Position numbers and translations under genes: made by a program. From contig JBMONI010000024.1 of assembly GCA_049324575.1 (NCBI GenBank), positions 53,144 to 117,143 of the forward strand: a DNA stretch of 64,000 nucleotides, read 5' to 3'. This DNA is from Candidatus Omnitrophota bacterium. Lineage in GTDB: Bacteria; Omnitrophota; Omnitrophia; Omnitrophales; Aquincolibacteriaceae. Numbering within the stretch: position 1 is the first letter of the stretch; each line of letters starts with the position of its first letter. The notes under the pieces were generated by a model, which saw only the letters and a list, made by a program, of their open reading frames with translations, was not told the origin of the DNA and did not search any database. Of the stretch, positions 46,635 through 62,521 are shown in pieces.

Positions 46635-46709
46635 TGGAGCCTCCGTTTCAACATTTTACGGATCTTTTCCCCTTCGATAAGACCGGCAGCCCTGTCCGCT
46701 CGGCCGCGC

Positions 46710-47141: not shown

Positions 47142-47576
47142 AGGGTTTCTAAGTCTTTTTGCCGCTTCGCTTCTTTATCCGAACCCCAGTTTTTCCGTTC
47201 CTGCATCATTCGCCACCGCATCCTTTTGCCGTCCTTCTTCTCCCGAAAGCATAACGTCATTTGTCTTTTCGGAATTTCATCGTTTCGCCGCAGCACGGTT
47301 GTTTTTTCCTTGAAGCTTCTCCGCATTTCCCGCATTCATAAAGCGATGTTTTTTTGCCTTTGCCTTGCCGAAGATGCTTCGCCATAACCCCGACCTCCTT
47401 TTCCTGCCCTTATCATATACCGAAGCCTCTCAAGGCCCATGGGCTGATTCCGGGATTTGCTGACTTTTTTCCCATCCGCGGAAACCCTTGAAAACAAAGC
47501 CCCGATGGGCCTCGGAAGGGATAGAGGGAAGCATTCTGGGCTTTCCGATGGACGAAGGATAAGGTTTGAAAAACGG

Positions 47577-47984
47577 TCAGGACCCGCCCAGCAATTTCCT
47601 GACCGTCGTCAGAAACTCTTCGACCGAGTAGGATTTACTGATGACCGCGTCCGCCCTCTGCAGATCGAAGGCCAACGGACTGTCGCCGGGTTCCATTTGT
47701 TGGGTCAGAAAACGGTGCACGACAGGATCCGCGCTGAAAATAGCGACCTTGGGCACTGCCGTTTCGGGAGAATAGCTCTTCATGTTCTTCAAAAGTTCGA
47801 GTCCGCTGAAATGAGGCACTTTGATATCCAGAAGGACCAGGTCATAATTGCCCTTGGCGATCATGGCCTTTCCGCGGATCCCGTCGAACGCCATGTCAAC
47901 CCCATATCCCTCCGCGGCAAGGGCTTCCGCCAATTCTTCGCACAAAACTTCATCATCATCCATCACGAGGACTCTCTTTTTCAT
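47577..47984 (-). CDS. single-domain response regulator receiver, cognate partner of the downstream multi-PAS kinase
   Basis: MKKRVLVMDDDEVLCEELAEALAAEGYGVDMAFDG…LVLLDIKVPHFSGLEL. Its ATG overlaps the kinase stop (ATGA). Track ORF 47577..48095 trimmed to the internal start. Confidence 0.85.
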   Translation of the reverse strand: MKKRVLVMDDDEVLCEELAEALAAEGYGVDMAFDGIRGKAMIAKGNYDLVLLDIKVPHFSGLELLKNMKSYSPETAVPKVAIFSADPVVHRFLTQQMEPGDSPLAFDLQRADAVISKSYSVEEFLTTVRKLLGGS

Positions 47985-50900
47985 GGCGGTCCGCTCTCCC
48001 CAAGGACCGGCAAAACGACCGTGATCGTCGTGCCCTTCCCTTCTTCGCTCGCCACGTCGATACGGCCCCCGTGATTCGCCACGATCTGTTGGCAAACCGT
48101 CAGGCCCAGCCCTGTCCCCTTGGTCTTGGTCGTGAAAAACGGCTCATGGATCTTGGAAAGATTTTCTCGGCTGATCCCGCAGCCGTTGTCCTCGAACCGG
48201 ACGGCAACCTCGCGGCCTTCATTCTCATACCCGGCTCCGACCACGATCCTTCCGTTCTTATTCGAAACCGCATCCACGGCATTGATCAAAATATTGTGGC
48301 AGACTTCTTTGACTTGGAAAGGGTCGAACTTGAACACTTTGCCGCGGATGTTTTCATAGTTCTTCACCCATTCAATCGCGTGTTCCCCCGCCCCGTGCTT
48401 CACCGCCTCGATACATTCCTCCAAAAGATCAAAAAGATCCGCCTCTTCCCAAACGGGCTTCCGGATGCGGGAATAAAACAAGAGGTTATTGATGATCTGA
48501 TCCGACTCCGCCACTTTTTTCTCGATGTGGATAAGATGCTTCTCGAGAAGCGGACCGGGGGCTTTTTGCTTGATGTTATAGGATGCGATACGGATCGCCC
48601 CAAGCGGCGTCCGCAATTCATGCGCCACGGTCGCGGCCAGGGCGCCAATGTCGGAAAGCCGTTTAGCTCTCTCAAGCTCGGTCTGGGCGCGGAACAACTC
48701 GTCGGTCCTTTCCTGGACCAGTTTTTCAAAGGTTTCCTTGTCCCGTTTCAGGATCTCTTCGGCTTTCTTCCGGTCCGTGATATCGATACAAATACCGGTC
48801 ATACGCTTTGGCTGTCCATGGTCATCGTAGAGGGTATTGCCCATTGCACTGATCCACCGCACTTCTCCGCCCGGTAAAACGATCCTATATTCATTCTGAA
48901 GCGGAATGCGGTCGCGAATAGCTTGATCGATCTTTGCTTCGGCCGCGGCACGGTCCTCGGGATGGAGCGCTTTTTTCCAGACCTCAAAAGAGCTCTCCCG
49001 GGAGGACGGATCCAGCCCAAAAAGAAAAAAGAACTCCGGCGACCAGGTGAGTTCCCCGGTCTTCAAGTCCCAATCCCAGATCCCCGCTCGGGCGGCCTGC
49101 TGCGCAAGGACCAGCCTTTCGTGAGCTTGACGCAGCGCTTCCTCCGCATGCTTTCGGTCGGTGATGTCCTGGGTGATGCCGAATCCGCCGGTGAATTTTC
49201 CGTGCTCATCGAATTCCAGATAGGCTTTCTCACGCACCCACTTGACGTGGCCGGAAACCACGATCCGGTGTTCGACCTCATAGGGCTTGCCGGTCAGTCC
49301 TGCCTTCCACTCGCGATCCACGAATTCACGGTCCTCGGGATGAACGCATTCCATAAAGGTTTCATAACTCATCGGAGCGCCCAGCGGGACGCCGAAAATG
49401 CGATGGTTTTCCTCCGACCACGTCAGAACATTGCGCCGCATATCCAGACGCCAGCTCCCCACATGCGCGACCGCCTGCGCATGGCTCAGGTCCTGCTGGC
49501 TTTTCCAGAGCGCTTCTTCGGCACGCTTGATCTCGGTAATATCCACGCTGAAACCGATGATCCCGATCATTTCGCCCTTTTCATTCACATAAGGCACTTT
49601 GTTGGTGCTCACGATCTTTCTTTCCCCTCTTGCCTCCATCGCTTCGACGATCCCGTATTTCGGCTGACCGGAGGCCAACACCGCACGATCGTCCTGCCAA
49701 TAGGCCTCCGCTTGCTCTTTCGGATAAAGGTCGAAAACGGACCGGCCCTCCAGTTGCTGTTTGGGCAACCCCATCATCTCTTCAAACTTCTTGTTCGTCC
49801 GGATAAAGCGGTTTTCTTTGTCCTTATAAAAGATCATCGCAGGCACGGAATCGAGGATCGTCTGAAGTTCGGCTTTCTTACTTTCGGCCTGGGCAGTCCG
49901 CTCCCGGACCAGGTCTTCCAAATGCGCACGATGTTCGGCTAATTCCGCCTCCGCCCTTTTACGATCCGTAATATCAATCCCTATTTCAAGCACCAATCGG
50001 GCGCCGTCGGTGTCGGTAAAAGGAAGCGCGTGCACCTCATAATCGCGTCCGTCCGGCCCGGTCCATTCCCCGAAATAAGGCCGGCCGGAGCGGAGCGTCT
50101 GGAAGATCTCGCAATTTTCGCAGCGGTCCCTCTGGTTGAAGATACACTCGTAGCATCGCCGTCCATGATCTTTTCCGAAGTGCTCGCGGAAGAATTTATT
50201 GGCGAAAGACACTTCCTTGCAGCCTTCCGACAGGAGCACCACATAGACCGGAAGCGTTTCCAGAACCTCGAAGAGCCGCTTCCGCTCAGCGATCGCCGCC
50301 GCTGAAAACTTTTTCAGTTTTCCGGACATTTGATCGAAAGCCCGGGAAAGCTGACCGATCTCATCGTTCGACGAGGACCCGATCTGATATTCCCAATTCC
50401 CGTTTCCAATGATCTCCGTGCCGCGGGTAAGACGCTGAAGCGGCTTCGAGATCGATCGCATCAGGGAAAGCGCCAAAAAACCGCTCAGCGCGATCACGAC
50501 CACAAGAAAAACGGCCACCTGATTTCGTAACCGGCGGATATCCGCAAAGGCTTCCCGGCGATCGATCTTGGCCACCAGGCCCCAATCGAGCGTCGGGATA
50601 TGGCGCCATGCCGCCACCACTTCCCGGCCACGGTAATCGATGTCGGCACCAACGCCTCTCGGCTCCTGTATGGCTTTCTGGATAGGGCCCCCAAGCGCAT
50701 CCCCGAGTCGGATACGCCTTTCCAAGGCTGCGCGGGGGTCATGACGAAGGGGGTTTAAAAAGATCACCTGATCCCCGAGCTTTTTCCCGATCAAAGTCTC
50801 TCCGGTCTTTCCCAGGCCGGTCACATCCTGGATCATTCGGTAAAAGGGCGCGAGATCCGCCTCAAAAACGATCCACCCGATCGGCAAACCGTCCGGATCT

Positions 50901-51439
50901 AAAAGCGGCGCCGTTGCCCGGACCGCGAGATGTTGGCGGGAAGGTTCATGCACCAACACATCGGAAATAAAAGCCCCTTCGTCCTGACCTTCGTGGATCT
51001 TCCGCTGACGTTCCGCGAGTTCTTTCAGAAAGTCTTCTTCGAAATGACGGGGATGGCTCGCATAGATCGGATCGCCGTCAAGGTCGAGGAGAATAATGGC
51101 GGATAACCGCCAGACCCGGGTCGCTTTTTGCAGGATCTCGTCGAGTATTTTCGTGGCCACCGCAGTCTCTGAAGCGGACGGTTCCCCGGCAAAGCGCGCG
51201 CAAATGGAAAAGTTCTTTCGGACCGAATGGTCGGCCTGAATGATCCCGAGGTCCGCTTTAATCGACGCAAAATACGCTTCGATATTTTCCGCTTTCAAGT
51301 CCGCAATGCTTTGAAGATGGGCAAAAACCTCGCCGCGCATCGACCTTTCATAATTACGAAAGGTCAGGAAGGTAATGAAAACGAGAGGAAGAAGGCAACA
51401 TCCCAGGAATAAGAAGATCAGCTTCGAGCGTATTGACAT
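47981..51439 (-). CDS. multi-sensor histidine kinase (TM + extracytoplasmic sensor + HAMP + four or more PAS/PAC + HisKA + HATPase_c)
   Basis: N-terminal TM MSIRSKLIFLFLGCCLLPLVFITFLTF. Second TM ~300 then HAMP. Repeated PAS/PAC units (…RFIRTNKKFEEMMG…, …HPEDREFVDREW…, …HPEDRAAAEAKI…). H-box ATVAHELRTPLGAIR. N/G boxes (HNILINAVDA…, DNGCGISRENLSKIHEPFFTTK, GTGLGLTVCQ). Confidence 0.9.
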   Translation of the reverse strand: MSIRSKLIFLFLGCCLLPLVFITFLTFRNYERSMRGEVFAHLQSIADLKAENIEAYFASIKADLGIIQADHSVRKNFSICARFAGEPSASETAVATKILDEILQKATRVWRLSAIILLDLDGDPIYASHPRHFEEDFLKELAERQRKIHEGQDEGAFISDVLVHEPSRQHLAVRATAPLLDPDGLPIGWIVFEADLAPFYRMIQDVTGLGKTGETLIGKKLGDQVIFLNPLRHDPRAALERRIRLGDALGGPIQKAIQEPRGVGADIDYRGREVVAAWRHIPTLDWGLVAKIDRREAFADIRRLRNQVAVFLVVVIALSGFLALSLMRSISKPLQRLTRGTEIIGNGNWEYQIGSSSNDEIGQLSRAFDQMSGKLKKFSAAAIAERKRLFEVLETLPVYVVLLSEGCKEVSFANKFFREHFGKDHGRRCYECIFNQRDRCENCEIFQTLRSGRPYFGEWTGPDGRDYEVHALPFTDTDGARLVLEIGIDITDRKRAEAELAEHRAHLEDLVRERTAQAESKKAELQTILDSVPAMIFYKDKENRFIRTNKKFEEMMGLPKQQLEGRSVFDLYPKEQAEAYWQDDRAVLASGQPKYGIVEAMEARGERKIVSTNKVPYVNEKGEMIGIIGFSVDITEIKRAEEALWKSQQDLSHAQAVAHVGSWRLDMRRNVLTWSEENHRIFGVPLGAPMSYETFMECVHPEDREFVDREWKAGLTGKPYEVEHRIVVSGHVKWVREKAYLEFDEHGKFTGGFGITQDITDRKHAEEALRQAHERLVLAQQAARAGIWDWDLKTGELTWSPEFFFLFGLDPSSRESSFEVWKKALHPEDRAAAEAKIDQAIRDRIPLQNEYRIVLPGGEVRWISAMGNTLYDDHGQPKRMTGICIDITDRKKAEEILKRDKETFEKLVQERTDELFRAQTELERAKRLSDIGALAATVAHELRTPLGAIRIASYNIKQKAPGPLLEKHLIHIEKKVAESDQIINNLLFYSRIRKPVWEEADLFDLLEECIEAVKHGAGEHAIEWVKNYENIRGKVFKFDPFQVKEVCHNILINAVDAVSNKNGRIVVGAGYENEGREVAVRFEDNGCGISRENLSKIHEPFFTTKTKGTGLGLTVCQQIVANHGGRIDVASEEGKGTTITVVLPVLGESGPP

Positions 51440-51578
51440 CGCAATGCGGTCCTTACTTGCGAGCGCGAACCCGCCTTTTTTTAGTCATGTTCATAACGGT
51501 ATTTCTTGCCCCCCCTTATCCGACACGAGACCGAACCGTCCAGCAGCAGTCCTTCGGATAAAGAAAAATCGAAAAATA

Positions 51579-52367
51579 TCAGCGTCTTCTTTCGGAGCGC
51601 TTTTGTTTGCCTTTTCCTTTTCGAGCCGCCGGACGAGAAGCCAAGGAGCGTTTTCCCGTCTTCTTCTGGCGAAATTCCGTGGGGGTCTTCTTGGTAAAAC
51701 GTTTGAATTGACGGATAAAGGATTCCGGGTTTTCATAGCCGAGCTTGTAGGCGATCTGGCTCACATTCCCGTCACTGCCGCGGGCCAAAAGGGTTTTTGC
51801 TTTTTCGATCTTGAGTTTGATCCGATACTGCACATAGCTTTCCCCGGTCTCTTCTTTAAAGAGCCGGCTAAGGTACTTCGGGCTCAAGCAGACGGCTTGC
51901 GCCGCGTCTTCCAGATTGGTTTTTTTGAAACAGTTCCGTTCAATAAAGCGTTTTACTTTCTCGATCTTACCGTGCGTGCTCGCCGTATCGATATCGCTCC
52001 CCGCATGTTGCTTTTCCAGGATCGTTTCCACCATGGCCCGGATCTTTTTGGGATCGGCCGGTTTCTCGATATAGTCGTCGGCATGGCCTTTAAGCGCTTC
52101 GATCGCCGTATCTTTGTCGCTGTAACCGGTCATGATGATGATCCCCAGGGCCGGATCGGTTCGTTTGATCTCACGAAGGACATCGATCCCCCCGCGGCGG
52201 GGCATCCGGACATCCAAGATGACCAGATCAATGGCATTGGCTTTGCGGATCATATCCACGGCTTCCTGTCCATTGGCGGCTTCCAGAACGCGATATTCGG
52301 AAAAGAGATCTTTCATCTCTTCCCTGAATTCCTTATCATCATCGACGACCAACAGAGTTTCCGTCAT
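51579..52367 (-). CDS. response regulator with AraC-type HTH output domain
   Basis: REC (MTETLLVVDDDKEFREEM…LVILDVRMPRRGG…IIMTGY). C-terminal HTH_AraC (…AQAVCLSPKYLSRLFKEETGESYVQYRIKLKIEKAKTLL…IAYKLGYENPESFIRQFKRFTKKTPTEFR). Confidence 0.85.
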   Translation of the reverse strand: MTETLLVVDDDKEFREEMKDLFSEYRVLEAANGQEAVDMIRKANAIDLVILDVRMPRRGGIDVLREIKRTDPALGIIIMTGYSDKDTAIEALKGHADDYIEKPADPKKIRAMVETILEKQHAGSDIDTASTHGKIEKVKRFIERNCFKKTNLEDAAQAVCLSPKYLSRLFKEETGESYVQYRIKLKIEKAKTLLARGSDGNVSQIAYKLGYENPESFIRQFKRFTKKTPTEFRQKKTGKRSLASRPAARKGKGKQKRSERRR

Positions 52368-52907
52368 GGTACTGTCCCTTTTTTCTTCAGGAAAACCCGC
52401 AACCCTTTCTCCTCGGACCATAAGCCATCCTCATGGTCCGACCTAGGATACCCCAAACGCTCCCCCAAGTCCCATCCCCAGGCACCAGGAGACTTTCCGA
52501 GATCGATCCGAAGGCTAGCGTGTATATAACTACCATGAATCGAGAGTGGAAAAAAGTGATTTTGCTCCCCCGTCTCCCTCCGATTTCCATTCTCTGACCT
52601 CTCACCATGACGGCGCATTGCCCACTCGCTTCTTATTCGTCAAACGGCGCTCCCTTCTCAAAGAAATACCTTCCGCTTTTCGCTTTTCTGTAATGGAAAT
52701 ACGGTGAAAAAACCGGGATTTTCCGTAGAAATAAGTCAGTAAAAAGCCGAACCCGCTTCTAGACTCTGAAACCCCTGGAGCCGCATAATGCAGGGCGTTT
52801 GGAAGAGACGTATGCAGAAACAATACCGCCCGGCCCAGGCCGTGGCCAAAGAGAAAGGCGCAGGTTATTTCCATGTTGCCGCGTGATAGTTTCTCACTTT
52901 TGATAAA

Positions 52908-53309
52908 ATGGAGGCCGACATGATGCAAGAGACGGACAATGCGATCATGGTCGTCGACGATGATGAGATCTTCCTGGAAGAGCTTAGCGAATCTCTGGCC
53001 TTAAGCGGTTACAACATGATCGCCGTCAGCGATCCCACCGAGGTCATTGATCTGGCATCCGGGCTGAAACCCAAACTGATCCTGTTGGATATCAATATGC
53101 CGGGGAAGACCGGACTGGAGATCATCCGCGAGATCGGAAAACTCCCGGAATTCGACGATGTTCCCGTGATCGTGATGAGCGGCTTCTTCCAAGATGAGCT
53201 CATGCTGCTCAACGAAATTCGCGGGATCAAGCGACTCGTCAAGAAACCTTTCGGTTTAGCGGACATCCTCGGGATCATTCGGGACACCCTCAAAGGAATC
53301 CCGGCCTGA
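52908..53309 (+). CDS. single-domain CheY-like response regulator, paralog B
   Basis: IMVVDDDEIFLEELSESLALSGYNMIAV…LILLDINMPGKTGLEI…IVMSGF… GGAGG RBS favours the ATGATG start at ~52920. Confidence 0.85.
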   Translation: MEADMMQETDNAIMVVDDDEIFLEELSESLALSGYNMIAVSDPTEVIDLASGLKPKLILLDINMPGKTGLEIIREIGKLPEFDDVPVIVMSGFFQDELMLLNEIRGIKRLVKKPFGLADILGIIRDTLKGIPA

Positions 53310-53381
53310 AGAGAATTCTCACGAGGACACGGACGGCCCTAGGAGGTTTGCGTTGAATCCATTACGATCGAGCCGGATGCC

Positions 53382-54839
53382 ATGAAACTGTCAAAGACAA
53401 TCCATTACGCGACGCTCTCGGCCGCTTTTGTCGGATTCGTTTTTACTCTTTTTATCAGCCACACCTTCGTCCATTTGCACCGGTCCTTCACAATGGCCCA
53501 CTATGAACGCGTGATCAGCGAAAACGCCTTTTATCTCCATTCCCTTCTCTCCGGTCCGAACCCGCTTTCCGCCCTGTCTCCGCTGCCGCCCCAGGAGGGA
53601 TCTTTTTTTGACAAGATCGATCTCCTCCTTTCGCAGTCCCAGGGCCTGAGTAAAGACGATGAAGAGAAAAAGACGCTCGCCGCGATGCAAAAGGACCTTC
53701 GTGGATCACAGCAGTATTTGTCTCAGCTCACAAGCCCCGCCCTGGGCAAAGACCCCGCGGCCCTTGCCGCTTTTCGGGAAAAAGTCTCGGCTCCGATCAC
53801 CCAGATCCGAGACGAAGCCGGCCGGCTTGTCGAGCGTTATGAAGAAGCGGTCCGCGCACGGCTTCACATCGCCCAGGGGGTCACGGTCTTTTTTCTTTTC
53901 CTTCTCTTGGGATTTACCGCCATCGCTATCCTTTGGTCTCACCTCTACTTGTTCCGTCCTTTAAGAGCGCTGGAGATCGGCGCCGAGAAGATATGGGAAG
54001 GTGATTTTCAATACCGCCTGGACTCAACACGCCCGGATGAGATCGGTCATTTATCCCGGACCATGAAGAAAATGACGGACCATTTACTCGACCTCCAGAA
54101 AAGGATCGAACAAGAAGCCCAGCAAAAACTGCAGGCCCAGCACGAACTGCTCGATATCCAGGAGATCGAACGGAAGCGGATGGGCCAGGACCTTCACGAC
54201 GGGATCGCTCAGCGGCTGGTCGGTATTTCCTTCATGGCTCAGCTCGCCGAGGGGAAATTATCTCAGCAAAAGCCTCTCGATGCGGGGGATCTGAAAAATT
54301 TGACCGAGGAGATCAAAAAAACACTTGAGGAAACCCGGCAGCTCGCCCATGGTTTTTATCCTGTCGATCTTCAGCATTGCGGTCTCGCGCCGGCACTGCG
54401 CAATCTGGCCCAGACCTTTGAATCGACTTTTCGGATCCAATGCGATTTCACTTGCCCCGAAGACCGTATTGTCGAAGATCCGGATATCGAGGCGCACCTT
54501 TATCGCACAGCCCAAGAGGCCATGCAAAATGCGATCCGACACGGCGGGGCCAAGGAGATCCGCATTGAATACGGGAAACGGCAAGACACCGCCTTTTTAT
54601 CGATCGCCGACAATGGGAAAGGATTTTCGCCCGGCACGGAGGGCATTCAGCGGGGGATCGGTTTTCGAAGCATGTATTACCGAGCGGCTCTGATCCACGG
54701 CACTATTTCCGTCGAAACGCGAAAGAACCGGGGCACGAGGATCACGGTACGATGCCCCCTGAAGCTCCCTCATCCCCATCCGGACATCGATACGACCCCG
54801 CATCTTGTGATCAACGCGGACAAAACTCCGTCCCTCTGA
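53382..54839 (+). CDS. sensor histidine kinase, NarX/UhpB/DegS class (HisKA_3 + HATPase_c)
   Basis: Two TM segments flanking a ~130-aa sensor domain. HAMP-like linker. H-box ERKRMGQDLHDGIAQRLVGISF (HisKA_3). ATPase N/G boxes (…AIRHGGAKEIRIEY…, DNGKGFSP…, GIGFRSMYYRAAL…). Confidence 0.85.
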   Translation: MKLSKTIHYATLSAAFVGFVFTLFISHTFVHLHRSFTMAHYERVISENAFYLHSLLSGPNPLSALSPLPPQEGSFFDKIDLLLSQSQGLSKDDEEKKTLAAMQKDLRGSQQYLSQLTSPALGKDPAALAAFREKVSAPITQIRDEAGRLVERYEEAVRARLHIAQGVTVFFLFLLLGFTAIAILWSHLYLFRPLRALEIGAEKIWEGDFQYRLDSTRPDEIGHLSRTMKKMTDHLLDLQKRIEQEAQQKLQAQHELLDIQEIERKRMGQDLHDGIAQRLVGISFMAQLAEGKLSQQKPLDAGDLKNLTEEIKKTLEETRQLAHGFYPVDLQHCGLAPALRNLAQTFESTFRIQCDFTCPEDRIVEDPDIEAHLYRTAQEAMQNAIRHGGAKEIRIEYGKRQDTAFLSIADNGKGFSPGTEGIQRGIGFRSMYYRAALIHGTISVETRKNRGTRITVRCPLKLPHPHPDIDTTPHLVINADKTPSL

Positions 54840-54887
54840 GAGAATCTAGATTTTTTTTGAGATCGGGAAAAAAACCCAGGCGGTCTT

Positions 54888-55649
54888 TTATTCGTTCTGG
54901 ACCCAATGCATCGCCATGCGGATCAATTCCATGTTATTCTTCAGATTGAATTTGACCTTGATCCGCGCGCGGTAGGTTTCGATCGTCTTAACGCTCCGGT
55001 GAAGCTGCTGGGCGATCGCAACCGTCGTCGCCCCTTCACCGATAAGCCGGAAAACTTCCAATTCACGGTCGCTGAGGGACTCCATCGGCGTGAGATTGGC
55101 CTGGCCCATGTATTTTTTCTCGAGGATATGCTCCATCATCCGGTCGCTGAGGTAGATCTGGCCTTCCAGGATCTTGCGGATCGCGATGGCGATCTTTTCA
55201 ACCGCTTCTTGTTTCGTCACATAGCCCCGGGCGCCTTCCCGCAGGACCCGTTCCGCATAAAGCAGTTCGTCATGCATCGACAGAACCAGGGCCGGGACTT
55301 CGGGATGGTCCACTTTCAAGACTTTTAAGAACTCGATCCCGCTCGATCCGTTGAGGGAAATGTCTACGATCACCAGATCGGGTTTTTCGGCCGCCATCAT
55401 GGTCAGCGCCTTGGGATAATCTTCCGCCTCGCCACAAACCGTCATATCGGCTTGGGAGTTAATGAACTCCGCGATACCGCGCCGGATAATGGGATGGTCG
55501 TCAAGGATCAGGATCTTCGCCCGTTTGGAGGCATTGAAAGAGCCCCGGGGCATGGCGGCCGAAGGATCCTTTTTCGCATGCATGCCGGGAAAAGGCTCTC
55601 TCGGAGTTTCTTTTTTTTCTTGCTTGGGAATATCCATCGTTTTTTTCAT
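54888..55649 (-). CDS. NarL/FixJ (LuxR-type HTH) response regulator, cognate of the HisKA_3 kinase
   Basis: REC (ILILDDHPIIRRGIAEF…LVIVDISLNGSSGIEF). C-terminal GerE/LuxR HTH (LSDRELEVFRLIGEGATTVAIAQQLHRSVKTIETYRARIKVKF). ~40-aa Lys/Pro-rich N-terminal extension. Confidence 0.9.
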   Translation of the reverse strand: MKKTMDIPKQEKKETPREPFPGMHAKKDPSAAMPRGSFNASKRAKILILDDHPIIRRGIAEFINSQADMTVCGEAEDYPKALTMMAAEKPDLVIVDISLNGSSGIEFLKVLKVDHPEVPALVLSMHDELLYAERVLREGARGYVTKQEAVEKIAIAIRKILEGQIYLSDRMMEHILEKKYMGQANLTPMESLSDRELEVFRLIGEGATTVAIAQQLHRSVKTIETYRARIKVKFNLKNNMELIRMAMHWVQNE

Positions 55650-55964
55650 CGCATCACCTATCCCCTAGGGGGATCTGCGCGGTTACGACTCGGTTCAAAA
55701 AAAACCAGAAGAACCTATTCTCTTACACAGGTCCGAAACACGGCATTATCATACCTGAAAATACAGTTTCTGATATAGGGAATTACCCTGAAAAAGGTCG
55801 GGGAAAACCTGATAAAAAGGGGCCTCGGACGAGGCTCCCGAAGGAAAAAAACAAGGGGAAGGTACGCTATGCAAACCGGCCGTTTCACTGAACCTGTCTG
55901 CCCCTTCCCCTTTGTTTTCATCTTCCCGCCCCGTTGCCGCCGAGCGGGAAAAAACGATTCGTTC

Positions 55965-58900
55965 TTAGTTGCTCACCGTAAAAACCACCGGGATCGCATG
56001 ATCACCCGTATCGTCCGTATAAACCATGCTCAGGGTATACGTGCCGTTTGTAAGCGTGCGCGTATCAAACCCGCTGGTACCGTCCCCGTTGGGACCTCCC
56101 CACGTAAAAGGCGGCGTATAGACCTTCCCGGATTTCGTTCCGTTCAGATAATACGCCACTTTCCGGATCCCCGGATTCAGCGTGAGGTTCGGCTGGATCA
56201 TGACCGTCCCGCTCACCGTCTGACCTTCCGTAACACCGCAGATCGCCGTCGTGCAGGAAGCCGCAGGCGGAGACGCCGTCGTCAGGGTCGAGATCGCGGC
56301 CTGTGCCGCCTGATTCCCCGCCGCATCCTTCGACTTCACACGGAATTCATACACCGTGCTTGGGGCCAATCCGCTCAACGTCATTGAATGGTTGGTCACC
56401 AGCGCCGGATCGACGCTCGTCACCGACCAATTCGCGGTCCCTTGGACGCGGTATTCCACCAGGGAATCGCTGGCCTCATCCGTCGTCCATTGGATCGTGG
56501 CGCCGGTCTCGGTCACATTCGCCGAGGTCACCGCGCTGATTACCGGTACGGTCGTATCCGGAGCCGGAACCACGGCATTTTTCACCGTAAAGCTGATTTG
56601 AACCCCGTGATCACCCGTCGCATCGGTATACCCCATCGCCAGCGTGTAATTTCCGTCCGCAAGGGTACGCGTGTCAAATCCCGTCGTCCCATCCCCGCTC
56701 GGCCCGCCCCACAAAAAGGGCGCCTGATATACTTTCCCGGATTTTGTTCCGTTCAAATAATAGGCGACCTTGCGAATACCCGGATGGAGCGTGAGATTGG
56801 GACCGATATTCACCATCCCGCTCACGATAGCACCCTCGGCCACTCCCACGAAATCCCCTGTCGAGGGAACGGTTGTATCGGCCGTCGTCAGGGTCGAGAT
56901 CGCGGCCTGCGTTGCCTGATTCCCCGCCGCATCCTTCGACTTCACGCGGAATTCATACACCGTGCCCGGAACCAACCCGCTCAGCGTCATCGAATGGCTG
57001 GTCACCAGCGCCGGATCGACGACTGTCGCCGACCAATCCGCGGCCCCTTGGACGCGATATTCCACCAGAGAATCGCTAGCCTCATCCGTCGCCCATTGGA
57101 TCGTGGCACCGGTTTCGGTCACATCCGCCGAAGTCACCGCGCTGATCACCGGAGCGGCCGTATCCGCCGGCGTTAAGGTCGTCAGGGTCGAGATCGCGGC
57201 CTGCGTTGCCTGATTCCCCGCCGCATCCTTCGACTTCACGCGGAATTCATATACCGTACCCGGAACCAACCCGTTCAACGTCATCGAATGGCTGGTCACC
57301 AGCGCCGGATCGACGACTGTCGCCGACCAATCCGCGGCCCCTTGGACGCGATATTCCACCAGAGAATCGCTGGCCTCATCCGTCGCCCATTGGATCGTGG
57401 CGCCGGTTTCGGTCACATCCGCCGAAGTCACCGCGCTGATCACCGGAGCGGCCGTATCCGAAGCCGTATTGCTGACAACAAAGGATACCGACATGCTATG
57501 ATCCCCTGTGCTATCGGTATACCCCATCGCCAAAGTATAGTTCCCGTCCGAAAGCGTGCGGGTATCGAATCCTGTCGTTCCATCCCCGCTCGGCCCGCCC
57601 CACAAATACGGCGAGGCGTACACTTTTCCGGACTGGGTCCCATTCAGATAATAGGCGGCTTTCCGGATATCGGGATGCACATAAAGATTCGGCCCGATGT
57701 TCACCACGCCGCTGACCGTGGCCCCTTCGGTCACTCCGACATAGTCCCCTGTCGGTGCCGGATTCGCCGTTGTAAACGTCGCGATCGTAGCCTGAGTGGC
57801 CAAATTCCCCGCCGCATCCCTGGATTTCACACGAAATTGATAGACCGTACTTGCGATCAGCCCGTTCAGGTTGATCGAATGATTCGTCACCCAGGAAGGC
57901 TGCAGGCTTGTCGCAAGCCAATCGCTGTCCCCCTGGACACGATACTCGACCTGCGAATCACTGGGTTCATGAGTGGCCCAGGTGATCGTCGCGCCGTTTG
58001 AAGTGACATTGCTTACCGCCACCGCACTGATCAGAGGCGCTTCCGTATCCGGAGGAAGATTCATCACCGAGAAGCTAACGCTCATCTCATGGGTCTCGGC
58101 CGCCCCATAACAAAGGGCATTCAGGGTGTAATCCCCATTTTCGAGCGTCCGGGTATCCAATCCGCTGGTTCCATTTCCGGAAATACCTCCCCAATAAAAA
58201 GGAGACTGATCGACATCGCCCGAGCTTACGCCGTTCAGCAAATAGACAACCCGGTTAAGATCCGTATGGATCTGGAGATTCGGACCAATCTGGACCGTTC
58301 CGCTGACCGTCGCACCGTTCTGAACACCGGTAAATTCCGGCTGGACACCGCCGGTGCTTCCGAATTCGTACGCGCCAATATCGACACTGCTGCCGGCAAC
58401 CCGCTCATGGCCATCGAGATCCGAAGTTCCGAGCGGATAGACCATCGAACCGGCATCAATCGCGGGACTGCCGGATTGAAGGTGGAAATCCCTGCCGCTC
58501 AAGTCCACAAGCCGCGGATCCACGAACTGGCTTGTCGAACTGAGAGTAAAACCCGCAGGGTGATTGGGGTCATACCAAATATTGTTGCTCTCCGTCATCG
58601 AACCGCCATCCCGCACATAGAGCGCGCCTGAAGCGAGGTTGCGAACGATAATGGAGTTTTGCAGCGTTGTGCTTGAAGCTCCCCCATCGTTATCGATGCG
58701 GATATCGGCGGTTTCGTTGTTCGCAAAAGTGGTGTTGATAAACGTGATCTGCCCCATGCGATTGTTGACCCCATAACCTTCTCCCGCAACAGGGTCCCCA
58801 ACGAAGACTTTTGCGTCATGAGACAAGGAATCCTTCACCACGATCCCGGATCCCCAGACCTTGAAGTTGTTCTTGTTGCCGTAGACTTCGACATTCTCCA

Positions 58901-59954
58901 TCAGCACGTTCGTCGCTTTCACGTCAAAACCGCCGTCCCAATTGTCATAGGACTTGACGTTCCGGACCGTGATCCGGTTGCCGAATTCCAAAATGAACCC
59001 GTCGCCGTTGCGGTATCTCGTCTCAAATCCCGAGTAAACGTCTTTCGATCCGCTCACGTCGATATTCTCATAGAGAATGTCGGTCGGAGTGACCCCGGTG
59101 GTCGCTTCCGTGCGGAAACCGTTACGGCTATTGGTCACGACGGCATTGCGGACCGTCACGTGATCGCCGCCGTTGATCAGGACCGCAAAATGGTTACGGT
59201 CGGCCCGGAGCCCGTCGATCTCGATATAAGAACTGTTCGGACCGACGGTCACGGCCGCCCGCAGATTATTCACTGTCAAATTATTGAAATGGATGTAATC
59301 TTGGCCGTTGGTATTGAAAGCCGGGTTGTAATTAGCGGCGACCGTATATCCACTGATCGTCGTTGTGGTCGTGCCTTCGATCACCACGTTGCCCAGACCC
59401 TGAATCGTGATCGGAGCATCCGCGGTCCCCGAGGTTGAAAACACCGCCCCGCTTCCCGGCTGCTGGTAAGTTCCCTCCATGATATAGAGAGTATCTCCGG
59501 CCTGAAGCTGCGAGACCGCGTAGGAGATGCTTCCATAAGGATCCGCCTCGGATCCATCTCCTTGATCACTGCCGGTTGCCGATAGATAGAACGACCGCCC
59601 TTGCGTCGTCAAGGCGGCGGTCGGCGCGCTGAGCGGCCCGGCCATGAAGAAGTCTTCAGTCGGGGCAGGCTCCGTTTGCGCGCTTGTTTCGGAAACTGTC
59701 TCTTGAAGCGGCTCGTCCAAGGCAACCGTCGGCGTTTGAGGATTAATCAGCTCATCCGCGGTCGGAGGCGGGACTTCGGCCCGCACATAGTCGGCCAACG
59801 TCACTTGACCCAGAAAAAGAGCCGCGACGGCTGTTGAAAGGATCTTCCGTGACTGGCTCAGGACCTTTTTCCGGATCTTGTTTTTCCCGCGGAGGGATTC
59901 CTTGCTCTCTTTTTCACGAAGCTCGTCTTGCTCTGCAATGATGGTGAATGTCAT
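55965..59954 (-). CDS. giant cell-surface protein: N-terminal anchor, right-handed parallel beta-helix (pectate-lyase/NosD-like) domain, then alternating Ig-like and fibronectin-type-III repeats
   Basis: Start moved to MTFTIIAEQ…; hydrophobic anchor ILSTAVAALFLGQVTLA. Beta-helix region with Asn/Thr ladders (…NNRMGQITFINTTFANNETADIRIDNDGGASSTTLQNSIIVRN…) ending in the DIGAYEFG motif. Four ~95-aa modules of type …GxTVSGxVxIGPNLxxHP…YYLNGTKSGKV…WGGPSGDGTTGFDTRTL…SVxFxVxN alternate with five FN3-like modules (…PVISAVTSADVTETGATIQWATDEASDSLVEYRVQG…TVYEFRVKSKDAAGN…). Two FN3 copies are ~98 % identical. Confidence 0.85.
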   Translation of the reverse strand: MTFTIIAEQDELREKESKESLRGKNKIRKKVLSQSRKILSTAVAALFLGQVTLADYVRAEVPPPTADELINPQTPTVALDEPLQETVSETSAQTEPAPTEDFFMAGPLSAPTAALTTQGRSFYLSATGSDQGDGSEADPYGSISYAVSQLQAGDTLYIMEGTYQQPGSGAVFSTSGTADAPITIQGLGNVVIEGTTTTTISGYTVAANYNPAFNTNGQDYIHFNNLTVNNLRAAVTVGPNSSYIEIDGLRADRNHFAVLINGGDHVTVRNAVVTNSRNGFRTEATTGVTPTDILYENIDVSGSKDVYSGFETRYRNGDGFILEFGNRITVRNVKSYDNWDGGFDVKATNVLMENVEVYGNKNNFKVWGSGIVVKDSLSHDAKVFVGDPVAGEGYGVNNRMGQITFINTTFANNETADIRIDNDGGASSTTLQNSIIVRNLASGALYVRDGGSMTESNNIWYDPNHPAGFTLSSTSQFVDPRLVDLSGRDFHLQSGSPAIDAGSMVYPLGTSDLDGHERVAGSSVDIGAYEFGSTGGVQPEFTGVQNGATVSGTVQIGPNLQIHTDLNRVVYLLNGVSSGDVDQSPFYWGGISGNGTSGLDTRTLENGDYTLNALCYGAAETHEMSVSFSVMNLPPDTEAPLISAVAVSNVTSNGATITWATHEPSDSQVEYRVQGDSDWLATSLQPSWVTNHSINLNGLIASTVYQFRVKSRDAAGNLATQATIATFTTANPAPTGDYVGVTEGATVSGVVNIGPNLYVHPDIRKAAYYLNGTQSGKVYASPYLWGGPSGDGTTGFDTRTLSDGNYTLAMGYTDSTGDHSMSVSFVVSNTASDTAAPVISAVTSADVTETGATIQWATDEASDSLVEYRVQGAADWSATVVDPALVTSHSMTLNGLVPGTVYEFRVKSKDAAGNQATQAAISTLTTLTPADTAAPVISAVTSADVTETGATIQWATDEASDSLVEYRVQGAADWSATVVDPALVTSHSMTLSGLVPGTVYEFRVKSKDAAGNQATQAAISTLTTADTTVPSTGDFVGVAEGAIVSGMVNIGPNLTLHPGIRKVAYYLNGTKSGKVYQAPFLWGGPSGDGTTGFDTRTLADGNYTLAMGYTDATGDHGVQISFTVKNAVVPAPDTTVPVISAVTSANVTETGATIQWTTDEASDSLVEYRVQGTANWSVTSVDPALVTNHSMTLSGLAPSTVYEFRVKSKDAAGNQAAQAAISTLTTASPPAASCTTAICGVTEGQTVSGTVMIQPNLTLNPGIRKVAYYLNGTKSGKVYTPPFTWGGPNGDGTSGFDTRTLTNGTYTLSMVYTDDTGDHAIPVVFTVSN
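56880..57480. repeat. near-identical ~297-bp tandem duplication (two FN3-module copies) inside the surface-protein gene; a third diverged copy lies at ~56300..56600
   Basis: Identical peptides at a 99-aa offset (TAAPVISAVTSADVTETGATIQWATDEASDSLVEYRVQGAADWSATVVDPALVTSHSMTL[N/S]GLVPGTVYEFRVKSKDAAGNQATQAAISTLTT). The plus-strand antisense ORFs 56873.. and 57206.. also repeat the same peptide 333 nt apart. Confidence 0.8.
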
Positions 59955-60581
59955 TTTCAAATTCTCCTTTTTTGAATTTACAAAGCTCAAGGAGAACGAA
60001 ATGTCAGAGGCAAGTGCAGGAACGATAGAGGTGCGTAAGATATGTCTGAATGAAACCGTCAGAACCGCGAAACCTTCACCTGCTTGACAACCGCGTTCTT
60101 CCTGTCAAGAACTTCAGATTTGCGATCTCGAACGATTTGGCTGGATGAGCTCTCGAGGTCTATCCCTTTTGGGATCAAATCTTCCAAACTTTTGAAAAAG
60201 CTTTGTACGTATCAGAAGATATCCGTATCTTCCGTACAACGAAACCCTACACGAGGTCCGTAAAAATATCAAGGGTCTGGAAAAAAAATAATTTTATTAT
60301 CCTTGGATGAATTACCCTAACTTCTTTGTATATATTGCGTTATAAAAATAGAAAGAATATATGTTTTCTGTTCATTAATTATTAAAAACTAACTTTTTGG
60401 AACATAAGTCAGGTAGGCCCGAATAGATGTCGGTATTTTTTGTAAGGATTTTACGCTGGTATTTATCGGGGAAAATCAGAGTTCTTGGAAGGGCCTCGCA
60501 AACAGGGTGCTGGAATCCCCAGAGCGGAGAGGAAAAACCGGAAACAACGATCCGAAAACCGATCTCAGCCGTTCGGCGCTC

Positions 60582-61505
60582 TTATGAGAATCCCTTGGCG
60601 AGACGGCGCAAACGCGGACGGATCTCCCACATAAAATTATGGACGATCGGCTTTGGCAAATAGGTCAGCAGATGGTAATAAAGAGTTTTAAGCGAAAATT
60701 TCCCCAGAATCTTCCGGAGCCTTTGAATTTCATCGCGCGCGGCCCGAAGCTCTCCCTGCTTAAGAAAAAGCGAAAGTCTCCAGGTGTGATACTGCCGCAT
60801 CAGAAGGCCTTTGGAGCCGCCGTGCTCCAGGCATCCGGTATCTTTAAAGGAGGTGTAATTCGCATCATGGATCCGGTAATAAACCAAAAACCTGGGAAGC
60901 ATGATCAAAGAAACGCCGAAACGGATGAAGCGCTTCCACATCTCCGTATCTTCGGACAATTTCCGGTCCTCATCCGGATAGCCTCCGACCTGTTCCCATA
61001 CCCGCCTCGGAAAGCTTGTCGCCGAGTGATAAAGAAAATTCTCATACTGCATCATGCGTGTGATCGTAGACGCCGGCGGCAAACGGATATCCAAGACCGT
61101 ATTTCCTTTTCCGCTGATCACCGTGACCCAACAAGAAACAAAACAATAGCCGTGCGGCAGTGTTTCAATAAAACCCCGCAGTGTTTCCAGATAATCCCGG
61201 GCGAAAAGATCATCACAGTCCAACCGGACGATCCACTCGCCGCGAGACTCCCGGATCCCCCGGTTCAGACTTTTTGCGATCCCCAGATTTTCTTCATTGC
61301 GGACAGGGCGGATATTCGGATGGGCCGCCGCGTAACGAGCCAAGATCGTGGGGGTTTTATCCTGCGACATATCATCGACCACGACCAGCTCCCAATCCCG
61401 GAACGGCTGAGCGAGCACGCTATCGATGGCCGCTGAGAGAAAATTCTCGCCGTTATAAACGGGGATGACCACCGAAAAAAAAGGCCGGGATGGATCTGGA
61501 CTCAT
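60582..61505 (-). CDS. family-2 glycosyltransferase (GT-A fold)
   Basis: FFSVVIPVYNGENFLSAAIDSVLAQPFRDWELVVVDDMSQDKT… with DxD. Its ATG overlaps the epimerase stop (ATGA). Confidence 0.85.
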   Translation of the reverse strand: MSPDPSRPFFSVVIPVYNGENFLSAAIDSVLAQPFRDWELVVVDDMSQDKTPTILARYAAAHPNIRPVRNEENLGIAKSLNRGIRESRGEWIVRLDCDDLFARDYLETLRGFIETLPHGYCFVSCWVTVISGKGNTVLDIRLPPASTITRMMQYENFLYHSATSFPRRVWEQVGGYPDEDRKLSEDTEMWKRFIRFGVSLIMLPRFLVYYRIHDANYTSFKDTGCLEHGGSKGLLMRQYHTWRLSLFLKQGELRAARDEIQRLRKILGKFSLKTLYYHLLTYLPKPIVHNFMWEIRPRLRRLAKGFS

Positions 61506-62521
61506 GCGGCCACCACCCCTGCCTTCCTCCGGGAAAGCAGCCAATCGACAAAATGTTCGATCCCGGTCTCGAAATCCGTGACCGGGAAATAACCGAACAG
61601 ACGGCGCGCCTTGCTAATATCGGCGTACGTTCGCTCTACATCGCCCGGCTGATGCGGCAGGCGGCGGATGCGCGCTTTCTTGCCCAGAACCCGCTCCAGA
61701 CAATCGATCATCTCAGCCAACGAAACCATGCGGGATTCCCCGAGGTTCACGATCTCATAGACCGGCAGGGTCTGCTTTGCCTCGGTAAGCCAGCGCAATG
61801 CCCCCAGGATCCCGCTCACGCAATCATCGATATAAGTATAGTCTCGCCGGGATTCTCCGTCCCCGAAAACGGGGATCTCTTGTCCGTCCAGGATCAGCTT
61901 TGCAAATTTATGGATCGCAAGATCGGGACGCTGGCGGGGCCCATAGACCGTAAAGAACCGCAGGCAGGCGATCCGCATCGCAAAATGGTGGTAATAACTA
62001 TGGCACAGTAGTTCACCGGCTTTTTTCGTAGCCGCATAGGGCGAGATTGGATAATCGACACAATCGGTTTCGGCAAAAGGGACCTTCGGATTATTGCCGT
62101 AGACGGAGGACGAGGAGGCAAAAAGCAAGTGCCGGATCTTCATCGCCGCGCATGCCTCCAGCAGGACCTGGGTCCCCACGATATTGGCGTCGGTATAATA
62201 CAAAGGTTCCTGCAAGGAGGGGCGGACCCCCGCCATCGCGGCCAAATGGATCACGCCCAACGGCCGTTCGCGTTGGAGGAGGCCAAACAGCCCGGTTTTA
62301 TCCCGAATATCCCCCACAACACTGGTGAAATTCCCATGCGCATCCCGCTCCTTCACCGCCCGGATATTGTCTTCCTTGATCTTGCGATCATAAAAGGCAT
62401 TGAAATTGTCGTAGGAAACTACACGATATCCGTGCTGGAGCAATCGCCCACAGACATGGGATCCGATAAAACCCGCACCGCCTGTCACCAGGACACATCC
62501 GAGACCATTACGGCTTATCAT
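61502..62521 (-). CDS. NAD-dependent nucleotide-sugar epimerase/dehydratase (extended SDR; UDP-glucuronate/UDP-GlcNAc 4-epimerase-like)
   Basis: VLVTGGAGFIGSHVCGRLL Rossmann motif. YxxxK (…YAATKKAGE…). 339 aa. Similar to the WbpP/Cap1J/LpsL class. Confidence 0.85.
   Translation of the reverse strand: MISRNGLGCVLVTGGAGFIGSHVCGRLLQHGYRVVSYDNFNAFYDRKIKEDNIRAVKERDAHGNFTSVVGDIRDKTGLFGLLQRERPLGVIHLAAMAGVRPSLQEPLYYTDANIVGTQVLLEACAAMKIRHLLFASSSSVYGNNPKVPFAETDCVDYPISPYAATKKAGELLCHSYYHHFAMRIACLRFFTVYGPRQRPDLAIHKFAKLILDGQEIPVFGDGESRRDYTYIDDCVSGILGALRWLTEAKQTLPVYEIVNLGESRMVSLAEMIDCLERVLGKKARIRRLPHQPGDVERTYADISKARRLFGYFPVTDFETGIEHFVDWLLSRRKAGVVAA

Follow-up and report, generated by a model that had tools for sequence, protein, structure and literature searches.

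We have analyzed a single long gene and its surroundings in a window of 64,000 nucleotides (the whole stretch of Omnitrophota DNA studied here, with positions counted from its first letter). The gene is complete. It occupies positions 55965..59954 of the minus strand, stop codon included, and encodes a protein of 1329 aa that matches NCBI MFZ5802832.1 exactly. An AAGGAG ribosome-binding site can be read from the sequence 8 nt 5' of the ATG (59964..59969, minus strand). This ORF is a real gene, and its sole annotation in the source MAG is "fibronectin type III domain-containing protein". The domain order of the product is a predicted signal peptide, a Pro/Thr linker, a right-handed beta-helix, and a tail of modules in the order Ig-FN3-Ig-FN3-FN3-Ig-FN3-Ig. 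All features within the gene are given below on the minus strand, apart from the tandem duplication, to which no strand applies.

Residues 1-54 (59793..59954) comprise a long basic n-region and an h-region, ILSTAVAALFLGQVTLA, as judged from the sequence and from the N-termini of homologs; the hydrophobic segment itself spans aa 38-54. TLA|DY is the likely signal-peptidase I site of a cleavable Sec signal peptide, and corresponding putative cleavage sites, AFA|V and SWA|D, can be read from the sequences of homologs. No lipobox Cys occurs in aa 1-54, and no SLH, cell-wall anchor, autotransporter, TPS or other anchor domain is found among the Pfam and NCBIfam matches. The C-terminus of the protein is formed by Ig module 4 (...VVFTVSN) and lacks a C-terminal sorting signal. 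A sequence-only reading of this locus had described an N-terminal hydrophobic anchor; the hydrophobic stretch is present, but it resembles a cleavable Sec signal peptide rather than an anchor. It is followed by a low-complexity Pro/Thr/Glu/Ala linker (aa 55-115; 59610..59792), which is found in all close homologs and varies in length.

Residues 116-533 (58356..59609) form a right-handed parallel beta-helix, a fold shared with Pel9A, the PL9 pectate lyase of Dickeya (Erwinia) chrysanthemi (PDB 1RU4). The helix terminates in a choice-of-anchor Q cap, ...DIGAYEF (NF041518, 42.6 bits against a curated cut-off of 25, aa 489-531). The pectate-lyase-like fold that had been proposed is correct: an AF2 model of the helix with Ig module 1 has a pLDDT of 91.7, and 1ru4 is the first-ranked PDB match to a broad profile, with an E value of 2e-35 and the whole helix covered. 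PF13229 (Beta_helix) scored 42.1 bits against a gathering threshold of 25.9 when the helix was scanned alone and was missed in the whole-protein scan, and PF22842 (Pel9A-like_beta_helix) is recorded for close homologs. Comparison of the 13-member family with 1ru4 by hhalign gave a probability of 97.1% and an E value of 5e-11 over 240 columns; with the narrow family profile and HMMER, significance was confined to the N-terminal cap. The two proteins have in common the N-terminal cap G-x-D-x-N-x-G-S...AGD and the C-terminal cap D-L/I-G-A-F/Y-E. Similarity to Pel9A is nevertheless only distant, and the protein fails the curated PL9 equivalog model for PelN (NF041899): its score of 28.1 bits is far below the cut-off (740), and the match is limited to the N-terminal cap (aa 105-165).

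The putative active site, placed by alignment to Pel9A, lies in three coils, YRNGDGFILE, NWDGGFDVKA and GNKNNFKVWG (aa 314-368; 58851..59015). These coils carry D318, D340, D344 and K365, and the three motifs recur in ~40 further family representatives. In Pel9A, D209, D233 and D237 are the Ca2+ ligands and K273 is the catalytic base (PMC10992409). D340, D344 and K365 correspond to Pel9A D233, D237 and K273 in every alignment (HMMER, MAFFT and hhalign); they are invariant in 13 of 13 close family members and present in ~16 of 49 sequences of a wider beta-helix set. The counterpart of Pel9A D209 depends on the method: the broad-profile HMMER alignment pairs it with the invariant D318, as does one-coil stacking, since D318 precedes D340 by 22 residues (one coil); MAFFT and hhalign pair it with the variable S308. 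Where Pel9A has D234, the family has Gly, Ala or Ser, and the loop preceding Lys273 in Pel9A is 13 residues shorter in the protein here. Invariant acidic residues of the family are D318, E323, D340, D344 and E353, while an invariant His column and the epimerase motif DPH(D/E) are both absent among the 13 members. The sequence-only reading had suggested testing for a lyase active-site groove; alignment shows a putative Asp/Asp/Lys set of the Pel9A type. Its invariance at 43-57% identity, set against its variability in the wider group, argues for retained chemistry and not for binding alone.

The tail contains four Ig-like modules: module 1 (aa 538-632; 58059..58343), module 2 (aa 734-828; 57471..57755), module 3 (aa 1031-1126; 56577..56864) and the C-terminal module 4 (aa 1234-1329; 55968..56255). 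Interleaved with these are FN3 module 1 (aa 633-729; 57768..58058), module 2 (aa 830-927; 57174..57467), module 3 (aa 928-1025; 56880..57173) and module 4 (aa 1130-1226; 56277..56567), modules 2 and 3 being the first and second copies of a tandem pair. The four conserved modules of ~95 aa noted from the sequence are indeed there and are Ig-like by module HMMs; the FN3 modules number four and not five, both by Pfam fn3 (PF00041, 122.9 bits against a threshold of 25, in 4 stretches) and by module HMMs. Sequences of the Ig module type are rare: a module-profile search gave only 3 database matches. Big_7 (PF17957) scored 30.5 bits on the whole protein against a threshold of 24.1, through Ig module 4 only. 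This module begins with C-x4-C and is the sole one to pass by itself; in single-module scans Ig modules 1 and 2 reached 17.4 and 15.0 bits. Ig module 3, modelled alone, gave an Ig-like beta-sandwich with a pLDDT of 82, and its best structural matches are CAZyme accessory beta-sandwiches, namely the Fn3-like modules of CbhA and the B1 domain of CelAly. The FN3 modules match the FN3 region of exoglucanase CbhB and the FN3 of chitinase A1. FN3 module 1 is the oldest copy (64% amino acid identity to the other FN3s, dS about 1.2), and FN3 module 4 shares 88-89% nucleotide identity with modules 2 and 3.

The near-identical FN3 duplication that had been reported was recovered by TRF (56884..57460, 2.0 copies, 97% matches) and by alignment of the copies, which places two 294-bp units at 56878..57471. 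Its period is thus 294 bp (98 aa) and not the 297 bp first given. The copies are also less than virtually identical at the DNA level: the 283-bp core holds 7 differences (97.5% identity), 6 synonymous and 1 non-synonymous, and the latter, N894 versus S992, is the N/S difference already noticed and the sole amino acid change within the 94-aa core. Between the copies dN is 0.005 and dS is 0.087; the duplication is more recent than any other event in the gene, but it is not brand new. The sequences indicate that both copies have been under purifying selection since the duplication. The linker at the copy junction, TTA ACG CCG GCG (LTPA), is unique, and AAT ACG GCT TCG (NTAS) precedes copy 1.

The repeats had also been flagged as an assembly hazard, and independent Logan k=31 contigs from the same sample (SRR32167788) do break at them, stopping at 57431 and restarting at 56337, so that the interval 56338..57430 is missing. 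This absence is what could be expected if the tandem FN3 pair, or the number of its copies, were an artefact of collapse, expansion or strain variants stitched in tandem; so is the fact that most differences between the copies are synonymous SNPs, which strain variants would show too. We consider this improbable. The Logan breaks coincide exactly with the first shared 31-mers predicted from the MAG sequence, and the junction has its own LTPA linker, which a graph cycle could not have invented. Exact repeats exceeding read length had been feared, but the longest exact runs common to both copies are 93, 74 and 58 nt, and the hazard is limited, since distinguishing SNPs at most 93 nt apart allow ordinary reads to phase the copies.

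The family to which the helix belongs comprises roughly 50 clusters, mostly from Omnitrophota, and its members range from ~400 to >1300 aa with 0-8 tail modules, including 0 to 5 Ig modules. The tails of relatives carry CAZyme accessory modules (GH115_C, Laminin_G_3, PKD and Big_7), and the same helix type is found inside proteins of 3-5 k-aa. In another Omnitrophota MAG (L006), the syntenic ortholog combines 4 Ig modules with only 2 FN3 modules, and the FN3 modules of either protein resemble one another more than they resemble those of the other ortholog. The predicted variation in repeat number therefore holds at the evolutionary scale. This ortholog comparison suggests that the FN3 modules are the labile part of the protein, being duplicated or homogenised within the gene and so altering the length of the stalk between lineages.

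The gene is preceded on the same strand by a polysaccharide-synthesis cluster that includes an EPS priming transferase, CDP-glucose pathway genes, GT2 and GT4 glycosyltransferases and an SDR, and that ends with a GT2 glycosyltransferase and the SDR as upstream neighbours (60582..62521, minus strand). Against B. cereus UDP-GlcA 4-epimerase structures the SDR reaches 227 bits, compared with no more than 155 bits against GalE enzymes; it is UDP-glucuronate-4-epimerase-like by best similarity only, with all NCBIfam scores below cut-off. No uronate-forming dehydrogenase was seen in the ~15 kb of the cluster inspected. The arrangement is fully syntenic in L006. The P0003 gene comes after the same CDP-sugar gene set, the P0001 gene overlaps a UDP-glucose/GDP-mannose dehydrogenase gene, and those of L007, L009 and L012 adjoin Wzy_C, GT4, Bac_transf or GT2 genes. 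Family members usually sit in polysaccharide-synthesis clusters; glycan genes were absent nearby at 3 of the 10 family loci examined.

The protein is best read as a Ca2+-dependent polysaccharide lyase or depolymerase that is secreted and carries its head on a stalk, a reading to which we give a probability of about 55%. It is most likely a fairly ordinary modular enzyme and not a new kind of surface protein. This reading is favoured because the Pel9A-type constellation is invariant in the family and because the family is linked to polysaccharide-synthesis clusters. The protein would be exported by its N-terminal Sec signal peptide. Its head, a distant homolog of Pel9A, would have a cleft whose walls carry D340, D344 and K365, and probably D318 as well. 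If the chemistry follows that of Pel9A and RbmB, Ca2+ bound by the aspartates would neutralise the carboxylate of a uronate, and K365 would abstract the C5 proton, so that the glycosidic bond is cleaved by beta-elimination. The eight-module tail may serve as a spacer and perhaps also as a stalk that binds polymers or cells, in the manner of the accessory modules of cellulases and other CAZymes. The likely substrate would be a surface polysaccharide or exopolysaccharide that contains uronic acid and is produced by the neighbouring cluster, the enzyme trimming or releasing the cell's own polymer; a polymer of a prey or host envelope is an alternative target. Rather doubtful is the wider proposal that the family founds a new polysaccharide-lyase family, distant from PL9 and directed at a galacturonate/deoxyhexose envelope polymer (own or prey), with expression in this lineage controlled by an undescribed structured leader RNA of ~300 nt.

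Several known systems resemble parts of this proposal. Pel9A lacks the 800-aa Ig/FN3 tail and belongs to a pectinolysis regulon, whereas the protein here comes from a non-phytopathogen and is encoded beside polysaccharide-synthesis genes. RbmB, the VPS lyase of Vibrio cholerae (PDB 9OZD), is a beta-helix lyase with a Lys general base, is stimulated by Ca2+, and cleaves the exopolysaccharide of its own producer (PMC12993940). Its chemistry and own-polymer role would, by analogy, be those proposed here, although it is only 16% identical to the protein, consists of a single domain without a stalk, and acts on a specialised gulose-containing VPS. The gene for RbmB is part of the rbm/vps clusters for the biofilm matrix, much as the gene here lies beside its own cluster, and the genes for AlgE4 and AlgG are found among those for alginate synthesis (algG in the alg operon). 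The accessory modules of C. thermocellum CbhA, of CelAly (B1) and of chitinase A1 (FN3) are serial spacers beside a catalytic domain, as here; the tail of our protein differs in interleaving 4 Ig and 4 FN3 modules.

The sequence-only reading had favoured an adhesin or S-layer-like protein. A non-catalytic stalked adhesin or glycan-binding protein, with a cleft that only binds, as in PfbA, and a head projected by the Ig/FN3 rod, seems unlikely to us but has points in its favour: adhesins typically have long arrays of Ig/FN3 modules and repeats that vary in number, this type of helix is also found within proteins of 3-5 k-aa, and attachment to other cells has been proposed for Omnitrophota, whose giant proteins are implicated in adhesion (bioRxiv 10.1101/2023.11.21.568195). 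Against this, the Asp/Asp/Lys constellation is invariant within the family, the Pfam and NCBIfam matches include neither an anchor to cell wall or membrane nor an autotransporter or TPS domain, and the linkage to glycan-synthesis genes recurs in the family. PfbA itself, a beta-helix adhesin from Streptococcus pneumoniae (PDB 3ZPP/4MR0), is attached to the cell wall as a surface protein (PMC3718772). The protein here differs from it in having no anchor motif and in keeping the Pel9A-type residues. The PfbA anchor is an LPXTG motif, and PfbA is not known to have a lyase catalytic set. A purely structural envelope role, such as that of an S-layer, is highly improbable. A large, secreted, repeat-rich protein that adjoining glycosylation genes could glycosylate would suit it, but no SLH or other S-layer domain is matched in Pfam or NCBIfam, residues of catalytic type are conserved, and the span of family lengths and tail sizes does not fit a lattice-forming subunit.

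Slightly less likely than an adhesin, in our estimate, is an enzyme of another class, either a glycoside hydrolase (depolymerase) or a C5-epimerase of the AlgG/AlgE type, acting on the polysaccharide of the neighbouring cluster. High scores are also obtained with GH families of the beta-helix fold (GH141 BT_1002, GH87, GH28, GH120 and GH136), and the five invariant acidic residues could serve a hydrolase. AlgE4 and AlgG, which are mannuronan C5-epimerases, act on polyuronate after polymerisation, but the missing DPH(D/E) motif and His indicate that the protein is not a member of their group. Both identity and profile similarity peak at Pel9A, whose Lys base is conserved; at the sequence level, it is this residue correspondence alone that separates lyase from hydrolase.

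Two non-coding features flank the gene. A weak terminator-like hairpin with a T-run lies ~120 nt past the stop codon (55823..55843, minus strand), and counts were not above those in shuffled controls. On the 5' side, alignment to the upstream region of the ortholog defines a conserved non-coding leader or regulatory region (59955..60257, minus strand). This leader of ~300 nt is 80-88% identical to the ortholog's upstream region, a degree of conservation that exceeds that of every coding sequence in the locus.

On the minus strand, the open reading frame covers window positions 55965..59990, and its ATG at 59954 lies 8 nt after AAGGAG; the gene coordinates 55965..59954 proposed by the sequence-only reading were exact. 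At the gene's 5' end there is no further in-frame start codon ahead of the hydrophobic segment. The encoded protein of 1329 aa matches the NCBI entry MFZ5802832.1 exactly ('MAG: fibronectin type III domain-containing protein [Candidatus Omnitrophota bacterium]'), comes from a contig of 216,882 bp and stands alone in its cluster at 90% identity. It opens with a basic n-region and h-region, ILSTAVAALFLGQVTLA (aa 1-54, window 59793..59954, minus strand), followed by a Pro/Thr/Glu-rich linker (aa 55-115), a beta-helix (aa 116-533) with DIGAYEF near its end (525-531), and a tail of eight modules: Ig1 (aa 538-632), FN3-1 (633-729), Ig2 (734-828), FN3-2 (830-927), FN3-3 (928-1025), Ig3 (1031-1126), FN3-4 (1130-1226) and Ig4 (1234-1329). 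Five FN3 modules had been counted earlier; this is an overcount, since Pfam finds four fn3 stretches and HMMs built from the modules give four Ig and four FN3 modules. The modules of the proposed Ig/FN3 alternation are real, but they do not alternate strictly, since two FN3 modules stand in tandem.

The N-terminus is of the secreted type. After the hydrophobic segment comes TLA|DY, where homologs carry AFA|VD, SWA|DE or LFA|ET, which suggests a Sec signal that is cleaved off and not an anchor. It could also be an uncleaved signal-anchor, since a long linker follows the segment in all relatives. The n-regions are unusually long and basic throughout the family, with about 35-55 aa ahead of the hydrophobic core (window 59793..59954; the syntenic ortholog L006 from another Omnitrophota MAG; the family proteins P0001 and P0003).

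The predicted beta-helix is upheld by structure prediction: AlphaFold2 on a 49-sequence alignment modelled it confidently (pLDDT 91.7, pTM 0.84). The scores listed for this fold are 31.7 for AlgE4, 30.1 for the PL9 pectate lyase Pel9A (with the highest identity, 22%), 29.8 for NosD, 29.3 for the Vibrio cholerae VPS lyase RbmB and 28.8 for BT_1002; several phage capsule depolymerases likewise score high. A phmmer comparison of the whole protein to the PDB was uninformative for the helix, returning only FN3 matches and one N-cap match, and the Pfam Beta_helix family, absent from the whole-protein scan, appears when the helix is scanned alone. A broad profile places Pel9A (PDB 1ru4) first, with an E value of 2e-35 and the whole helix spanned, and hhalign of a 13-member family against Pel9A gives a probability of 97.1% (E 5e-11). 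With a narrow profile, significance by HMMER is limited to the N-terminal cap, and the curated PelN model scores far under its cut-off. By these comparisons the helix is a distant PL9 relative and not a demonstrable member.

In Pel9A, Asp209, Asp233 and Asp237 bind Ca2+, and Lys273 is the base (reviewed in PMC10992409). In every alignment made, the partners of Asp233, Asp237 and Lys273 are D340, D344 and K365. All three are unchanged across the 13 close sequences but occur in only about one third of the 49-sequence beta-helix set, and are therefore not generic features of the fold. The partner of Asp209 is the invariant D318 in the broad HMMER alignment and the variable S308 by MAFFT and hhalign; D318 lies one 22-residue coil before D340, within an N-x-D-G repeat. 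An AlgG/AlgE-type epimerase was considered and rejected, as the DPH(D/E) motif is absent and there is no invariant His.

The gene follows a glycan-synthesis cluster on the same strand, which was read from a Logan contig. This cluster encodes a GT4 glycosyltransferase, an EPS polyprenyl glycosylphosphotransferase (TIGR03025, above cut-off), a GT2 glycosyltransferase, a glucose-1-phosphate cytidylyltransferase and a CDP-glucose 4,6-dehydratase (both above cut-off), a DRL_cat protein, an RmlC-like epimerase and a C-methyltransferase-type protein, with GT2, SDR and GT2 genes directly before the gene. By comparison to the PDB, the adjacent SDR reaches 275 bits with 5u4q and 227 bits with Bacillus cereus UDP-glucuronate 4-epimerase structures, whose identifiers were confirmed (PMC11519531), and no more than 155 bits with UDP-glucose 4-epimerases. 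The PDB discriminated better than NCBIfam, where every match of the SDR is below cut-off and the matches are split among GalE, LegB and RmlB. The higher scores to UDP-glucuronate than to UDP-glucose 4-epimerases suggest that the polymer of this cluster contains galacturonate.

Linkage to glycan-synthesis clusters recurs in the helix family. The gene for P0003 comes after the same CDP-sugar gene set, that for P0001 has a 10-nt overlap with a UDP-glucose/GDP-mannose dehydrogenase gene, and family loci L007, L009 and L012 are neighboured by Wzy_C, GT4, Bac_transf or GT2 genes. Near loci L005/L008, L010 and L013, no glycan genes were seen on inspection. The genes downstream, for a NarL/LuxR-type response regulator and a HisKA_3 kinase, have syntenic counterparts in L006. 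The stretch just downstream (window 44491..55649) encodes at least three single-domain receivers, an AraC-type response regulator, a dCache-HAMP-PAS kinase and a receiver-GGDEF-EAL protein; this dense signalling neighbourhood might point to a surface polymer controlled by c-di-GMP or by two-component systems. A scan for promoters and terminators gave counts not above those of shuffled controls, so that a terminator-like hairpin 3' of the gene is a weak hint only.

We consider the product to be a secreted polysaccharide-cleaving enzyme, most likely a lyase, with a probability of about 0.55. The sequence-only reading, which was largely correct in what it observed apart from some numbers, had proposed an adhesin or S-layer-like protein. 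Such a role would accord with a tail of Ig and FN3 modules, yet scans with Pfam and NCBIfam detected none of the anchor, SLH, autotransporter or sorting-signal domains that would support an S-layer or anchored adhesin. An enzyme is judged likelier; a non-catalytic adhesin is an improbable reading, though one to keep in mind, and an S-layer protein deserves hardly any credence. Another chemistry on the helix is rated as unlikely, slightly more so than the adhesin.

If the helix is a lyase, K365 would serve in Ca2+-assisted beta-elimination on a uronate-containing polymer. The target might be the cell's own polymer, as with RbmB, which acts on the polymer of its own cell (PMC12993940), or the envelope of another cell. 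The tail would be a spacer or a binder. The gene product is a modular secreted beta-helix polysaccharide lyase-like protein, of a known kind but from a poorly known phylum, the Omnitrophota, whose uncultured, ultra-small members may be predators or depend on a host. The lyase reading, if true, would provide a functional label and a testable set of catalytic residues for a family annotated merely as 'FN3 domain-containing' or 'beta-helix repeat', and would tie that family to one specific glycan cluster.

In relatives the tail is replaced or supplemented by GH115_C, Laminin_G_3, PKD and He_PIG/Big_9 modules, and the FN3 modules are similar to the ones in exoglucanase CbhB and chitinase A1. Such modules form the accessory repertoire of extracellular carbohydrate-active enzymes; the Ig fold by itself is too widespread to settle the matter. 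A profile of the Ig module found only 3 matches in a set of 5.8 billion proteins. Some Ig-like modules open with C-T-T-x-x-C-G (window 56241..56255 at the start of Ig4, modules 3 and 4 of the L006 ortholog, and modules of P0003), possibly a small disulfide loop; other Ig-like modules of the same protein are without it.

The FN3 modules show a clear, if small-scale, lineage-specific turnover inside the gene. A scan of species-representative genomes gave eight loci, several of them labelled Omnitrophota. Among these, L006 (Omnitrophota fen_1321) is syntenic, with the order GT2, SDR, GT2, ortholog, LuxR-type response regulator and histidine kinase. Its ortholog has 1163 aa, a helix 64% identical to that of the window gene and an Ig-Ig-FN3-Ig-FN3-Ig tail. 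The expectation that repeat number varies was borne out for FN3, with two copies in L006 and four in the window gene, while both orthologs have four Ig modules. FN3-2, FN3-3 and FN3-4 are 85-96% identical among themselves in amino acids and 88-96% in nucleotides (third positions 0.82-0.93); for Ig2, Ig3 and Ig4 these values are 66-78%, 64-72% and 0.40-0.47. FN3 modules share 59-69% amino acid identity between orthologs and 83% between the two inside the L006 protein. This higher identity within than between proteins indicates that FN3 modules were duplicated or homogenised inside the gene; most Ig modules are still orthologous by position. In an exhaustive profile search, the full helix turned up in about 45-50 clusters (at 50% identity), whose tails have 0-5 Ig modules and FN3 just occasionally (P0127). 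The helix family was also matched full-length in the middle of P0141 (3643 aa), P0143 (4910 aa) and P0144 (3154 aa), with E values of 1e-158 to 1e-166, and P0141 keeps the NGDGF and GNxxxFKxWG motifs. If our reading is true, this is a small clean case of domain-level concerted evolution altering the stalk length of a surface enzyme.

The tandem duplication has a period of 294 bp (98 aa) and not the 297 bp first proposed: TRF places it at 56884..57460, with 2.0 copies and 97% matches. Over a core of 283 bp the two copies, FN3-2 and FN3-3, have 7 differences, 6 synonymous and 1 non-synonymous (AAC/AGC, N894/S992), with dS 0.087 and dN 0.005. They are the youngest duplication in the gene, and purifying selection has acted while synonymous changes built up. 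Between the copies, the linker (~57165..57176, junction TTAACGCCGGCG) is L-T-P-A (TTA ACG CCG GCG), while that ahead of FN3-2 is N-T-A-S; the tandem junction is therefore unique sequence, beyond what a cycle in an assembly graph could create. Within the gene, the exact repeats that reach 31 nt or more measure 93, 74 and 58 nt between FN3-2 and FN3-3, and FN3-4 has one 32-mer in common with each of them.

Neighbouring genes are also found in Logan contigs of run SRR32167788. One contig stops at window 57431 and another begins at 56337, both 100% identical to the window, so that both sides of 56338..57430 are covered but not this interval. The contig ends fall within the 58-mer and 32-mer repeats, exactly where a k=31 graph is expected to break if the MAG sequence is correct, and the Logan data are consistent with that sequence. 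The suspected assembly hazard is thus demonstrated for small-k assembly, but it is bounded: SNPs are at most 93 nt apart, and ordinary reads are therefore able to phase the copies. For genome curation, a repeat documented as breaking small-k assemblies means that FN3 copy number in such genes needs to be checked against reads.

Directly 5' of the start codon, a candidate leader of about 300 nt (59955..60257, minus strand; ~9260..9568 in L006) is 80-88% identical between the orthologs. It is more conserved than every coding sequence compared in the locus (67-78% nt identity: 67% for the gene, 70% for the upstream GT2 and 78% for the response regulator). Its substitutions lack codon periodicity, and no ORF is common to both orthologs. 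RNAalifold gives six pairs with compensatory changes, including two hairpins, evidence that is thin because it comes from two sequences and the fold z-score is -1.67. Rfam gave no match at the gathering threshold or at E≤1, and nhmmer found no homologs in other family loci. A metagenome scan with the 19-mer CCAAATCGTTCGAGATCGC returned 27 loci, none alignable to the leader past the seed, and several of these form unrelated near-identical groups. This region, which contains the inverted repeat CTTGACA(N13)TGTCAAG, could act as a 5' leader RNA or as a control region bound by protein.

Elsewhere in the window, ORFs of 1597 aa (676..5469) and 687 aa (5882..7945), both on the minus strand, match no Pfam family at E≤1e-5. 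A 2904-aa ORF (35526..44240, minus strand) has PEP-utilizers_C as its only Pfam match, in mid-protein (aa 1552-1731). Very large, mostly unannotatable proteins such as this one are reported to be typical of Omnitrophota. TypA/BipA (10618..12468) has 616 aa in the window and in Logan and 611 aa in the NCBI annotation, a discrepancy of start codon only.
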